From a virus: DNA of 64,000 nt. The notes beneath the pieces are model-generated. The model did no database searches, had not been told where the DNA came from, and saw only the letters and a list, made by a program, of their open reading frames with translations. Position numbers and translations under genes: made by a program. This document shows, piece by piece, positions 135 through 63,583 of this stretch (within the stretch, counting starts at the first letter, position 1; every line of letters starts with the position of its first letter). The DNA lies in the IMG/VR virus record IMGVR_UViG_3300050343_000214, positions 32,001 to 96,000 of that record; one strand, 5' to 3'.

Positions 135-1078
135 ATGGCTAATAAACGTATTTTTTATGCACTCCAGCAAGTGTTAATAGGCGACGGAGAAGCGAGTGAA
201 ACATCAACCGCGCTAAAGGGTGTACAAAGTGTTGGAATGAGTTCCACCACAAATGTAGAGAGTTTTAGTGCTTTTGGTGGCATTGAGGCAACTACAATTC
301 TGCAAGACCTAGATCTTGAAATAACTATTGAGAATGGTCTTGGTAGCGATTGGACGAACGCCCTTGGAGCTGCTGGCTATAGCTCGTTCAATAGTGCGTT
401 TTTTGACACGAAAAGAACGATTACTTTAGAATATCTTACAGATAGTGGCACTCCGAACGTGACTAAATTAATCACACTGGAAGCTATTTTGACTTCATAC
501 AGTGTTCAGATGGGTCTTGATGGTGCAGCTACAGAATCTATTACTTTCCAAAATGCTGGCACCTCAGTCTTTACTGCGGGTTCTGACGGTACAGCGCTGT
601 CAGCTCAAGCAGGCAAAAAACTTTGTAATGTAATTACTCGACCTAACTTTACTAATTTTACATATACTGAATACCCGGAATGCTGTGAAGCAACCACTAT
701 AGCCCCCGCAACCTATAGTAAAGTTCAATCATTTAGTGCCAATTTTGATGTTGGAAGCGAAAAGGTTTCAGCTCTTGGGCAGTCTATGCCATTTGGCAAA
801 TTTGCTACCTTCCCAGCTGAAATTTCGGCAGAAGTAGAATACCATCTTGATCCAACTGGTGGTATTGGTACTCTTAATTCTGGAACTATTACTGGCAATA
901 GCTTGGATGATGTGTGTTATGATGTAGAAATTGCTATGCCCGGAAATACATATGCGATGGATAAAATGAGGCTCGCAGGAGCTAGCCGAAGCGGAGGTGA
1001 TGTTGGCGGTGGAAACGTAACTATTTCAGAAAGTTATACTGGATTTAATACGTTTAGCCTACTACTGGCCCTTCTTAA
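135..1078 (+). CDS. Probable major tail tube protein
   Basis: GGAG RBS; beta-rich ~315-aa protein a few genes upstream of the tape measure. The track ORF to 1208 looks like a fusion with the next gene; restoring one base near 1058 gives ...FSPTTGPS* with TAA at 1076-1078. Confidence 0.55.
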
Positions 1079-1085
1079 TTGTTAC

Positions 1086-2028
1086 ATGAGGACTGACGAA
1101 GAGGAACACTGGATACAGTCTATTAGAGTTGGCACTATTAAGTATGAAAATATTTCAATAGTGCCAGCTACTATAGATCAAGTGTCTGACGCTGCTAGAT
1201 GTCTATAGGACGATCTTACGATGAGTCTCTAAATAGTGGTATCATGACAGACTCAGGATTGGAACATTGGATGATAGAAAATTCTTTATTGCCGAAGTCG
1301 TTTCATACTTCTAGAGAAAATTTGAATAAATCTATAGACAATCTTAAAAAAAGATCTGTTCCGAAATAGGGCTAGCAAGTCTGCAATTAAAAAGATCCGT
1401 AGCGCAGATCTTACAAACACTCGCGCCAAGTTAAAAGATTGTACTTGCTCAAAAAATCCCACATGTCTCACAATACTTGTGAATTTATAGCGCAAACTGA
1501 AAAGTTAGTCTCTTTACTACACGCTACAACTTTCAAAAATAACAAGCCTTATAAGCCAGCTAATATGAATGTTGTCATTGAAATATGGCAAGAGTCTTTA
1601 GCTTCTGAATCCTTTGATCAGATCTTTAGTCTAGATGTGATACTTGGAGGTCTATTTGGGCTAACAAGGGGTTTGGCTTTAAGTTGTTTAAAAAAAATAA
1701 CCCAGATGATGATTTAACTATCAATCAAAGAAACTTAATCACATGGTCCAGAGTGTACGACAATATACAAGAGTCAATAGATTGTCCATCAGACGCAGCG
1801 ATTGCTAACCATGACATGCTTGATGGGTGGTTTTTAATTCAACAAGCTAAGAGGGAAAAAGAAAGAATGGAGCAAGAGGCAGAAGCACTAACTGGCGATA
1901 GAGGTAAGTCTGCAAATGCTCAACATGTCTTCGTTCCTCAAGGCGCAGACAACATAGATATTAATATTTTAAATGAGGGCCACGAATCTAAGCCTATACA
2001 TAATATAATTGAGGATCATAATAAATGA
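1086..2028 (+). CDS. Hypothetical protein in tail-assembly-chaperone position (several indels)
   Basis: MRTDEEEHWIQ... can be followed across frames into the 1439 and 1684 ORF fragments. Confidence 0.45.
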
Positions 2029-2357
2029 ACAACTATAATAATAGAAGGAAAGAAATTCACGATGCTAAGTCTTATAATAGGCTTTCTAGAAACATGAAAA
2101 AGAAAATACAAACAACTATGATTGGCGCTCTTAGCAGTGTTGAGAAACATTTTAGTTTTTTATGGGAGCAAGAAAATATTTCTGAAGAACAAAGGGAGTC
2201 ATTAAAAAGAATATATGACGATCTTAGATCTGAAATATTAGACAAAGGAAATCATCAACTAAGGAATGTTGATGCTGAATTGTCAGACTATACTATATCA
2301 TTACACCCAAACGTTCATGATATAAATTTTTTCGTAGATAACAAAGAGGAGAATTAA
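2025..2357 (+). CDS. Hypothetical helical protein
   Basis: Intact ORF with ATGA-type overlap with the previous gene and GAGG RBS. Confidence 0.6.
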   Translation: MNNYNNRRKEIHDAKSYNRLSRNMKKKIQTTMIGALSSVEKHFSFLWEQENISEEQRESLKRIYDDLRSEILDKGNHQLRNVDAELSDYTISLHPNVHDINFFVDNKEEN

Positions 2358-3230
2358 ATGAAAAAGGAACCTAAAAGGATACCAATTGAAGCTAAAGACG
2401 ACGATGATAACGTAGTCAAGGGTTACATTAGAAAGCCCGGAAGTAGCGTACTCGCTAGGGCGCAGAGGGTTCATGCTAAAGTGTGGACTGATTGCGTTAG
2501 GGATAAAATAATGACTAAGCAAGAGCTTCAAAACTTTATGTATGAAAATAATGTGTGGAATGCTGAAAAAGATCTTAAACAGCTCACCTTGAGTAATGAT
2601 ATCCAGCAGCTAGAGAAAAAACTGTATGTTGGTAATAAAGGGCAAAAGACGATGAAGGCGTCAGAGGCCAAACAAATTGCTATAGACATGCGAATTGCCA
2701 GAGCTAAACTGCGAGATTTGATTGCGGAGAAAATGGCCTTAGAGCAGAACACTGCTGAAGCCTTGGCAGATAATGCTAAATTTGACGTTTTAGTAGCAGG
2801 CTGCACATTCGACGAAAATGATAATCGTGTGTATAATAGTGTAGATGAATATTCCGAAAATGCTGATACTGGGTTTGCTTTTGCGGCAGCTACAGCTATG
2901 GCTGAATTGTTATATTCATTAGACAAAGACTTCGAGAAAACCTTGCCAGAAAACAAGTTCCTCTCTGATCAGGGGTATGTTAATGACGAGTTATCTCTAG
3001 TCAACAAAGACGGTGAAACCGTAGATACCGAGGGTAGAAGGATAAACGAATTTGGCTATTATGTTAATGACGCAGGAAAGAGGACAGATATCGAAGGTAA
3101 TCTATTGGATGAAGATGGTAATTATATCCCTTCAATACAATACGTAGAAGACGAAGAAGTGCCTAAAAAGAAGGTTGCTAAAAAGAAAGCAACTGCTAAG
3201 AAAAAGGCGGCTACTTCGTCCGATAGTTAA
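2358..3230 (+). CDS. Probable tail assembly chaperone-like protein
   Basis: Directly upstream of the tape measure; GAGGAG RBS; coiled-coil region, DxxG repeats, Lys/Ala-rich tail. Confidence 0.5.
   Translation: MKKEPKRIPIEAKDDDDNVVKGYIRKPGSSVLARAQRVHAKVWTDCVRDKIMTKQELQNFMYENNVWNAEKDLKQLTLSNDIQQLEKKLYVGNKGQKTMKASEAKQIAIDMRIARAKLRDLIAEKMALEQNTAEALADNAKFDVLVAGCTFDENDNRVYNSVDEYSENADTGFAFAAATAMAELLYSLDKDFEKTLPENKFLSDQGYVNDELSLVNKDGETVDTEGRRINEFGYYVNDAGKRTDIEGNLLDEDGNYIPSIQYVEDEEVPKKKVAKKKATAKKKAATSSDS
2828..2842 (+). promoter_or_regulatory. Putative internal promoter TGTGTATAATAGTGT
   Basis: Exact 15-bp match to 21109-21123; ~400 bp upstream of the tape measure start. Confidence 0.45.
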
Positions 3231-62102: not shown

Positions 62103-62461
62103 TATTCCTCCAAAATTTTTAATGGTTGAACGACAATAGTATCATCCTTTTTCCCGTGATATGGACACACAGTTTTGTGACCGTCTCCGTGGACTATAAC
62201 TCCAGAGCCTTTGCAAATGCATTTATCTGGATCTGGATGTGGACCGACTATATCTGGAGTTGGTTTTACTCCAAATACTTCTTTCTCTGACTCGTCAAAG
62301 GACTTCTTGACTTCTTGCTTCCATAACTCTACTTCTGAAGGTTCGCTGCTAAAACTAAGAGGTGTTCCTCCATCAATTATAGACGGAGGGTTATTTACAA
62401 AGTGCAATGTTCCTATGACAGAAATTAAACTAATAAAGCATAATTCCAAAAATCTTTTCAT
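62102..62461 (-). CDS. Membrane-anchored protein with Cys/His metal-binding motif
   Basis: N-terminal TM; CICKGSG...GDG...CPYH. Confidence 0.6.
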   Translation of the reverse strand: MKRFLELCFISLISVIGTLHFVNNPPSIIDGGTPLSFSSEPSEVELWKQEVKKSFDESEKEVFGVKPTPDIVGPHPDPDKCICKGSGVIVHGDGHKTVCPYHGKKDDTIVVQPLKILEE

Positions 62462-62688
62462 GGACTGCCTCCATCCACAGCGTTGTAATAAGAAATATCA
62501 TCGAATTTTGCAGTGTAGAGAGTTTCTAGTTCTGTTGGTGTTAAACTCGTATCAAACTCAACAAAACTAGGATCGGTGCTGGTATCAATTGTAAACGAAG
62601 TTCCAGTAGGAAAACAGCTTACTGTGACAGTTCCGTTCCTAAGAGTTGTGGTTGAAGCGTGTGCGTTTTGAGCGACATCAGTTGGCAT
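62458..62688 (-). CDS. Small Thr-rich hypothetical protein
   Basis: AGGAG RBS; ATGA overlap with the next gene. Confidence 0.5.
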   Translation of the reverse strand: MPTDVAQNAHASTTTLRNGTVTVSCFPTGTSFTIDTSTDPSFVEFDTSLTPTELETLYTAKFDDISYYNAVDGGSP

Positions 62689-62719
62689 ATTAATCTCCTT
62701 TTATAAAAATAATGTTGTA

Positions 62720-63583
62720 TTAGGGCGCAGATGTAGTGCTAATCATTGGGTAAGTAGTAAAGGTCACACTTTCAAAGTCTTGACTTGGCGTTGCGGGTGG
62801 GGTAAAATTCAAGCCTCTTTTGTATACAGCCAAATTTCTAATGTGAAAATGATCTATCTGACCACTAAAAGCATTGTTTCCATCTTTGTCAGAACCAATT
62901 GTTAGTTTTCCACCGTTTAAAAATTCTATTACTTGATCAGAATTTTCTGACTGTGTGGTCGTTGTCTTTTTACGCCATCAATGTACATATAAAAATTTAC
63001 TGTTAGTATACCCTGAGCCACTCTGTCTGACGATAGCTACATGATGCCATCCGCTAAGGCCCACAGCATCGCTGGTTAGACTGCGCGTACTTACAGTGCC
63101 GAAATCTTTATGTAAATAGGTATAGCTAAATTTAATTTTGTTATCAATCATCTCTACTTTATAATTTCCATAGGAATTCTCATGACTTTGTTCTAACAAA
63201 ACAGCGCTGCTAACATTTGCAGTAAAGTAAACAAAGAATTCCAGTGTAAAATTGTTTGTACCAATAGCTGTTAGAGCATTGTCGGAATTAGTATCGTCGT
63301 TATAGATTCTTCCCCCTGAAGTATTTTTTAATGAAGCTAGACCAAACTTCTTATTAGTTCCATCTAGATTAATATTAGAAGATGTAAAATCCAGATCAGC
63401 GCTGGAAACATCCTCGAAATTATTATTAAAGGGTAAAAGTACGAGGCTTGCATAACCACTCGCTGGAAGGTCTTGAGGGTTATATATTAGCTCGTTTTCA
63501 GAATAAACTTGCGCCACTGGGGTGTCAGGCTCTGCGCCAGAGTACAGCGTTACGGTTTGTTCGCCAAGATATATATTAGCCAT
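62720..63583 (-). CDS. LamG/concanavalin-like tail-fibre-type protein (indel at ~62980)
   Basis: NFTLEFFV, WHHVAIVR, LY.DG, FSGQID; continues to ...ISTTSAP*. Confidence 0.8.

Follow-up and report, generated by a model that had tools for sequence, protein, structure and literature searches.

Tag sites in the window

The DNA analysed here (the window, 64,000 nucleotides) comprises bases 32001–96000 of a 105,801-bp IMG/VR viral contig (IMGVR_UViG_3300050343_000214), which is ~68 % complete and originates from a tailed phage. Our subject is a group of short, mucin-like motifs of the form T-T-x-[AP]-P in putative virion proteins of this phage, together with a glycosyltransferase (GT) gene at 47540–48433 whose product has a predicted GT27-like fold. 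The plus strand encodes a tube-like major tail protein, a tape-measure protein of >1500 amino acids (aa) and large fibre-like proteins, and the minus strand carries a replication block with a split DnaE, DnaB, a primase, a PD-(D/E)XK nuclease, a dNMP kinase, a ribonucleotide reductase (RNR), RecA and PhoH. Metagenomes of seawater and of viruses from at least 15 studies contain near-identical DNA.

A first-pass annotation of the window had noted such motifs in several unrelated genes. The first lies in the major tail tube-like gene (135–1078, plus strand), which matches phrog_1407 (major tail protein) and has homologues of 308–314 aa. TTIAP is in frame here at 693–707, within the open reading frame (ORF) 135–1208, and forms part of a loop of the tube protein (ECCEATTIAP, 678–707, plus strand) that represents a candidate single acceptor site, T-T-x-A-P; it is identical in contigs of four seawater runs. 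The same gene encodes the peptide spanning ...ECCEATTIAPATYSK. PTTGPS, tentatively put forward as the C-terminus of the tube (1058–1078), had to be discarded: it is out of frame in the window, with a stop on either side, and is an assembly artefact, bases 1059 and 1063 being absent from contigs of four seawater runs from four studies. Removal of these two bases yields the natural end of the tube, ...NTFSYTGPS, and the same ending is found in homologues of 91 % identity.

TTAPP and TTAAP (9054–9098) are likewise in frame, in the 628-aa ORF 7971–9857, but the description of this ORF as the tape measure is tentative, as it returned no PHROG or Pfam match. Both motifs belong to the low-complexity segment TTAPPTPPVSTTAAPTPP (9054–9107, plus strand), downstream of a (GGGGA)n tract, and the region 9004–9300 that holds them is unchanged in contigs of runs X1 and X2. 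The (GGGGA)n-coding repeat itself (window 8960–9045) is a point at which contigs break in all four seawater assemblies, and it draws many unrelated contigs (a depth spike and loose ends). Further along the plus strand, TSTSPTTP is in frame at 21304–21336, where TVTSTSPTTPA forms a looser S/T/P segment at the N-terminus of a 525-aa ORF, and TTTSAPT (23655–23678) is the in-frame end of ORF 22863–23678, a 271-aa protein with the C-terminal tail TTPTATTTSAPT (23640–23678).

The remaining site is on the minus strand, where STTSAP (in frame at 62723–62740) forms the C-terminal tag (62720–62740) of a fibre-like protein with a LamG (Laminin_G_3) domain (62720–63583). The gene is disrupted in the assembly by two homopolymer indels at 62960–62998 (T5 versus T4, A5 versus A6), which give rise to an in-frame TGA at 62975–62977. 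In a related contig, L057, and in three homologues, the gene is intact (287–288 aa) and ends in the same manner, so the tag persists after indel correction. Stop-codon recoding was considered as the source of the TGA and rejected, because the intact homologues and the homopolymer differences account for it. The gene beside LamG encodes a protein in which an Mtd_N domain is combined with a phage tail-tip domain. No tag was seen in the capsid-like protein (337 aa).

Enrichment and sequence grammar of the motif

The structural proteins of the window contain five T-T-x-[AP]-P motifs against 0.24 expected, and four T-T-x-A-P motifs against 0.15 expected; neither count was reached in any of 2000 shuffles. 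T-T-x-A-P is absent from the window's non-structural proteins, and two proteins of the window end in it (0.003 expected). Over the whole 105.8-kb contig, T-T-x-[AP]-P occurs 25 times (0.78 expected) and TTTT 48 times (2.4 expected), and the reversed motif, with seven occurrences, is ~3.5-fold rarer than the forward one. Ser is no substitute for Thr, as S-S-x-[AP]-P was found once in the contig against 1.2 expected. When the structural proteins were shuffled inside 30-aa blocks, 1.3 motifs remained compared to 21 observed; residue order therefore matters besides composition.

The grammar that emerges is a Thr run, any residue, Ala or Pro (at times Ser, Cys or Thr) and then Pro. Pro at position +3 follows 25 of the 49 Thr runs of at least three residues, a 12-fold enrichment, with Ser or Ala at +1 and Ala, Thr or Pro at +2. 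All four Thr codons are used in the runs, in the proportions seen in the rest of the genome, from which we conclude that the tracts are not DNA microsatellites and are maintained at the protein level; the same mixture of codons rules out DNA slippage as their origin.

Conservation of the tags in homologues

In the LamG family, the tag is kept in all five relatives, down to 58 % identity. The C-termini read TTSAP, TTSAP, TTPAP, TTAAP and TTTTSAP, of which TTSAP belongs to L057, TTPAP to a relative of 92 % identity, TTAAP to one of 82 % and TTTTSAP to one of 58 %. In the tube loop, T-x-[A/T]-P is present in 10 of 14 homologues of at least 62 % identity, x being I, T, L, Q, N or S; the motif is gone in more distant homologues, among which the length of the loop is variable. 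Homologues of the 271-aa protein end in TTTAAPT (95 % identity), TTAPPAT (73 %), STTANPTG (45 %) and EEEEEESS (44 %), such that the T/A/P character of the tail is found in four of five homologues and the sequence itself is not kept; no relatives of this protein were found in IMG/VR.

Conservation of T-T-x-[AP]-P with a variable x indicates that a class of sequence is under selection at particular sites. The proposal that two unrelated genes ending in TTSAP betray a selected tag is thus sustained for the class only. The exact match between the two genes is a coincidence within it, because relatives of 92–95 % identity read TTPAP or TTAAP.

A partly conserved T-T-x-P-P was also observed in a 218-aa protein encoded at window 52680–53336 (minus strand), which contains WTTTMPPH and whose relatives read WTT-MPPH or F[ST]THPPF.

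Long Thr tracts in giant structural proteins

Most of the signal lies in the 32 kb upstream of the window, in giant proteins that carry sequences such as T8-S-T6-YPP, T6-AAP-T10 and TTAPPTTTPAPTTAPPTTTAAP. The tags of the window are the short form of these long poly-Thr tracts, which are mostly outside it. Proteins bearing tracts match PHROG families of virion-structural, tail-spike and fibre-connector proteins, and Cys residues frequently flank the tracts. In a 1089-aa protein, a Thr tract (aa 567–599) immediately precedes an RCC1 propeller (aa 600–835), a placement between domains of the kind known for Pro/Thr (PT) linkers; the tags of the LamG and 271-aa proteins are C-terminal and not interdomain.

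The upstream giant genes form a 23-kb block at genome 7954–29962 (24 to 2 kb before the window start; L002, L003) of nine genes encoding proteins of 492–1095 aa, with RCC1 and other propellers and Thr tracts, situated between the head-completion and tail genes. This block is missing in five distant relatives, whose flanking genes adjoin. In these relatives the capsid-like protein is 65–70 % identical and the tube protein 25–30 % identical, and no Thr-tract enrichment was detected.

Past the window end, L057:232–9023 (genome ~96.5–104.9 kb) contains a tight minus-strand block beside the Mtd_N and LamG fibre genes. It encodes a papain-like peptidase, a 1658-aa Cys-rich protein with eight T-T-x-[AP]-P motifs as well as Thr/Ser tracts, and a 774-aa Hint-domain protein.

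A soluble glycosyltransferase with a predicted GT27-like fold

The gene at 47540–48433 (minus strand) encodes a putative soluble GT-A glycosyltransferase of 297 aa, which we propose as the initiating polypeptide O-glycosyltransferase. Its structure was modelled with 16 homologues (predicted local distance difference test score, pLDDT, 92.9). A Foldseek search of the PDB with this model returned GT27 polypeptide N-acetylgalactosaminyltransferases (GalNAc-Ts) as all of the top ~50 matches (E value ~1e-14, TM score 0.70 over ~300 columns), and an independent aligner, VIA-align, gave Z scores of 22.9 for GalNAc-T1 (266 of 297 residues aligned) and 22.2 for Toxoplasma TgGalNAc-T3, compared to at most 18.5 for generic GT2 enzymes. 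At the level of the predicted fold, the match to the GT27 catalytic domain covers the whole length of the protein, including the GT27-specific C-terminal subdomain. The model therefore suggests a resemblance to the GT27 catalytic domain, and we do not assign the enzyme as a member of that family.

GT27 enzymes possess a DxH motif plus a distal His (PMC4202792). Judging from the sequence and the aligned ranges, this metal-binding pattern is present in the phage enzyme: all 17 family members compared share D96-C-H98 and H219, and D96 falls at D209 of GalNAc-T1 when the aligned ranges (1–291 versus 114–405) are compared. The invariant motifs are located at 48137–48151 (DxH), 47849–47866 (GFGGEE) and 47771–47785 (WLHRF), all on the minus strand. 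GalNAc-Ts recognise the sequon T/S-P-x-P by means of a conserved pocket for the Pro at +3, and GalNAc-T2 favours T, P, A or S at −1 (bioRxiv 10.1101/2020.06.25.171371). The 25 of 49 Thr runs described above fit the GT27 requirement for Thr/Ser with Pro at +3 and represent candidate sites. Neither a ricin-type lectin domain nor an N-terminal membrane anchor was found in the enzyme; the first strand of the model begins at residue 3, the chain ends with the catalytic domain and Pfam returned no further domain.

The architecture of the family varies in other viruses. The protein encoded at L265:3420–5423 (G030) is 667 aa long; its first 280 aa form the GT27-like domain, and a long C-terminal extension follows. 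In L109, a Cys-rich stretch of ~60 aa is inserted into the domain.

Association of the enzyme with Thr tracts in other viruses

A scan of IMG/VR DNA for TTTTAAPTT yielded at least 120 contigs, 80 of which were fetched. Nearly all 80 carry the sequence in frame within Thr-tract ORFs, where T6-x-AP units are often repeated in tandem, and the contigs range from 26 to 71 % G+C. Conversely, TTTT-x-[AP]-P is present in 20 of 24 enzyme-holding records (129 matches, versus 4 for the reversed-pattern control) and in all five of those that are at least 90 % complete. Among 21 records picked for other reasons, the pattern was found in three, two of which hold the enzyme. Pooling the records, Thr tracts occur in 22 of 26 with the enzyme gene versus 1 of 19 without it. 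The enzyme gene occupies approximately seven separate genomic contexts (this clade, G010, G011/G012, G013/G014, G030, G041 and L109/L076). It directly follows a tract gene in L109, L076, L238, L240, L241 and G030, and in G041 a single 134-aa ORF separates the two. The tract protein of G030 ends in ...STTAAP, 79 nt before the enzyme gene. Tails of the form T(n)-x-AP at the C-terminus are a repeated feature of tract-bearing loci, and 698 kb of tract-less relatives contain none.

Thr-tract ORFs selected by the DNA pattern have a different commonest companion, an unannotated family of ~300–345 aa that we term A5. Of the 80 loci, 17 contain it, and in 13 of these it is adjacent and in the same orientation; among whole records, it occurs in 18 of the 39 selected by the pattern and in 0 of 45 others. 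An alignment of L069:3663–4655, L132:8135–9157 and 15 further loci showed an invariant DxD, and a confident model (pLDDT 90.7) has a GT-A (GT8/GT24-like) fold matching the retaining transferases WbbM, UGGT, LgtC and glycogenin; there was no Pfam match. A5 is unrelated to the GT27-like family, the two never co-occur and no member of A5 was found in this contig.

Small proteins of ~85–100 aa of the type ...YECCN(Y)-T8-AAP-T8-AAP... directly follow the A5 gene in other viral contigs (L132:7804–8085, minus strand; L104:7510–7770 and L138:3566–3874, plus strand; L136; L139). E-C-C also precedes TTIAP in the tube loop (window 678–707), and the CC is conserved in tube homologues. On the basis of these sequences, E-C-C and a Thr tag may constitute a shared recognition module.

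A proposed model of virion self-glycosylation and its alternatives

The initial suggestion of a selected mucin-like tag on virion proteins is supported by the enrichment, the conservation in homologues, the Pro at +3, the GT27-like model and the co-occurrence and adjacency of enzyme and tract genes. We consider it probable, on purely computational grounds, that T-T-x-[AP]-P motifs are acceptor tags of a phage-encoded mucin-type O-glycosylation by which the phage glycosylates its own virion proteins. As the enzyme has neither a signal peptide nor a membrane anchor or lectin domain, we propose that it works in the cytoplasm of the host, the site of virion assembly. There it would read Thr followed by Pro at +3 and attach the first sugar to the poly-Thr tracts between domains of the giant fibre proteins, to the surface loop of the tail tube and to short C-terminal tails such as those of LamG and the 271-aa protein. 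Extension or modification of the glycan could then fall to other phage enzymes described below, namely the GT34-like protein, the FkbM methyltransferase and possibly the GT4 enzymes, resulting in stiff, hydrated, protease-resistant linkers covered in glycan and a sugar-coated tail. We infer the action on the tracts, the choice of Thr, the sugar and the benefit to the phage from the observed grammar, conservation, predicted fold and gene association. More tentatively, many uncultured phages, this abundant marine one among them, may run a cytoplasmic mucin-type O-glycosylation in which a lectin-less structural relative of the animal GT27 enzymes reads Thr-x-x-Pro and coats tubes, fibres and protein ends with glycans.

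Several observations weigh against this interpretation. The motif was defined post hoc, after it had been seen, and any single isolated site could possibly be due to chance. Two T-T-x-P-P sites occur in non-structural proteins (TTLPP in the dNMP kinase, and TTMPP), and the kinase copy is not conserved in homologues. Thr/Pro-rich linkers also function without sugars. No membership of GT27 was found at the sequence level: Pfam gives PF00535 alone, over residues 7–117, and neither phmmer nor a profile of the 17-sequence family found a GalNAc-T among PDB sequences. The enzyme gene of this phage belongs to the replication module and has no tract gene beside it. Most of the 80 closest enzyme loci are syntenic relatives with the gene in that same module, and a tract ORF lies within 6 kb in just 3 of the 80. 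Finally, 19 of the 24 enzyme-positive records are syntenic relatives of this phage with the gene beside a PD-(D/E)XK nuclease, and the Fisher p of 7e-8 obtained on records is inflated because the records are related; we place no reliance on it.

The main rival explanation, which we regard as rather unlikely, is that the tracts are unmodified Thr/Pro/Ala linkers and disordered tails that space and orient domains, the GTs serving some other end such as modification of the host envelope, lipid-linked glycans or DNA. Tracts are indeed located between folded domains, the three GT4 genes are also present in tract-less relatives, tail sequences drift fast, and the position of the GT27-like gene among replication genes, by the dNMP kinase and PAP2, could suggest a nucleotide or lipid substrate. 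A linker at the very C-terminus would, however, join nothing, and it is there that the LamG family conserves TT-x-AP-COOH, an ending also seen repeatedly in other tract-bearing viruses. Nor would a simple spacer be expected to show a strict +3 Pro, to exclude Ser or to favour one orientation, and two unrelated GT-A families track and adjoin the tracts.

It appears improbable that the isolated sites of the window arose by chance from a composition rich in Thr, Ser and Ala, leaving the long poly-Thr tracts as the only real signal. Each site is five residues long and belongs to a motif chosen after the fact, TTLPP and TTMPP lie in non-structural proteins (the former not conserved), and TTSAP becomes TTPAP or TTAAP in close relatives. 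Set against this are the five sites in the window where 0.24 are expected, the two C-terminal ones where 0.003 are expected, and the persistence of the pattern with a variable x in 5/5 LamG and 10/14 tube relatives; moreover, the same grammar holds in the 32 kb outside the window, where the motif had not been defined. We give very little credence to modification of the tracts by host enzymes or another chemistry (phosphorylation or another sugar system), with the GT27-like enzyme acting on host proteins: the GT4, GT34-like, methyltransferase and PAP2 genes of the phage have no assigned target, which would accommodate it, but the genes for enzyme and tracts come and go together, and are neighbours, in viral genomes of very different size and G+C content, the pattern expected if enzyme and substrate are both viral.

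Comparison with known glycosylation systems

The self-glycosylation that we favour is reminiscent of animal and apicomplexan mucin-type O-glycosylation, in which GT27 enzymes act on Pro/Thr/Ser-rich mucin domains (e.g. EA2 and MUC5AC peptides). Common to both are the predicted catalytic fold with DxH and a distal His, Thr-rich (candidate) acceptors in which small residues surround the site and Pro stands at +3, and the alternation of Cys-rich modules with Thr tracts. In contrast, the phage enzyme has no lectin domain, anchor or secretory pathway and would act in the bacterial cytoplasm; it does not belong to GT27 at the sequence level, and the phage tracts are almost pure Thr with very little Ser.

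Among phages, Freeman and colleagues reportedly found in 2023 that mycobacteriophages (Che8, Corndog and Myrna) glycosylate their capsid and tail-tube subunits by means of phage enzymes. The likeness to that reported system consists of phage-encoded GTs, a tail tube among the modified proteins and C-terminal sites; in the present phage, GT genes are present and the candidate sites of this type are TTIAP in the tube loop and the S/T-rich tube end YTGPS. The systems differ in host group (Actinobacteria for the mycobacteriophages) and habitat, in the GT27-like candidate initiator and T-T-x-[AP]-P grammar found here, and in the position of most of our tracts as internal linkers of giant fibres; the mycobacteriophage case is also experimental, whereas ours is computational. 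To our knowledge, virion glycosylation by phage enzymes has been demonstrated experimentally for mycobacteriophages only. We found no literature on phage GT27-like enzymes or on Thr-x-x-Pro or Thr-rich phage tags.

PT linkers of secreted bacterial and fungal glycoside hydrolases are similarly extended, low-complexity Thr/Pro segments between folded domains and are often O-glycosylated. Here, on the other hand, Thr runs dominate, Pro is a cap fixed at +3, tags are found at protein ends and in the tube loop as well, and the proteins are virion parts made in the cytoplasm. The serine-rich repeat adhesins of Firmicutes (GtfA/GtfB, GT4) provide a precedent for cytoplasmic O-glycosylation of long hydroxy-amino-acid repeats by soluble GTs encoded near the substrate gene, and GT4-type genes are also present in the phage. 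The acceptors of that system are Ser-rich, however, unlike those described here (S-S-x-[AP]-P, 1 versus 1.2 expected), and the phage GT4 genes do not track the tracts. Giant viruses encode GTs and methyltransferases that decorate structural proteins independently of the host, as in the capsid glycans of chloroviruses and the fibrils of mimivirus; these are eukaryotic viruses with other linkages and enzymes, and we know of no Thr-x-x-Pro tag described for them.

If virion self-glycosylation is correct, the combination of a searchable sequon (Thr run, x, A/P, P) and an enzyme family would permit prediction of glycosylated virion proteins across viromes. A sugar coat on tails and fibres would be relevant to the stability of the phage, to its adhesion to marine gels and host surfaces and to its recognition by hosts or grazers. 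Since DNA of this phage is found in the metagenomes of at least 15 studies, glycosylated virions would be common in the sea rather than exotic. The prokaryotic-virus relatives of the mucin-building enzyme family would offer a clue to the origin of the animal family, and a soluble enzyme of 297 residues would be a simple tool for producing mucin-like glycopeptides in bacteria.

Other sugar-related genes and quality of the assembly

Pfam detected glycosyltransferase domains of PF00534 (three), PF00535 (one) and PF05637 (at its cut-off) in the phage. The PF00534 and PF05637 content corresponds to further genes on the minus strand. Three GT1/GT4-type glycosyltransferases (36275–40053) are common to relatives without Thr tracts and match only generic GT4 structures; comparison of a 560-aa GT with Gtf1 (4pqg) was not significant (E value 0.0036). 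Because tract-less relatives share them, we do not count the GT4 genes as evidence for tract glycosylation. A putative GT34-like glycosyltransferase (41936–42619) is a weak assignment, its score equalling the Pfam cut-off. An FkbM-family methyltransferase (43292–43981), possibly involved in sugar methylation, and a PAP2 phosphatase (46127–46825) are also encoded, the latter gene adjoining the GT27-like gene in 35 of 80 related loci. The five distant relatives possess the three GT4 genes and lack the GT27-like (GT2) gene, the GT34-like gene, FkbM, PAP2 and the giant tract block.

No DNA or protein relatives of the tube protein or of the GT27-like enzyme were found among cultured phages, and DnaE gave distant matches only, with no close cultured relative of the phage. 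No tRNA genes were found.

Numerous small indels, often paired 4–45 bases apart, distinguish this record from four independent seawater assemblies and from L057, a contig of 98.3 % identity that shows 115 gap positions in 18.9 kb of comparison and in which genes fragmented in the window are intact. They are located at window 1059–1630, 7717–7763, 54583–60709 and 62960–62998, and also in the genome past the window end. The genes broken by them include the tube end, LamG, RecA (370 aa in L057), PhoH, the class II RNR (739 aa in L057) and the Cys-rich giant genes; any ORF called on this record needs checking against a relative before it can be trusted.

Lastly, the two genes into which DnaE is divided (window 40393–45539, minus strand) enclose the GT34-like gene, a gene for an RNase T-type exonuclease and that of the FkbM methyltransferase. 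Relatives also have a divided DnaE; they lack the inserted GT34-like and FkbM genes.

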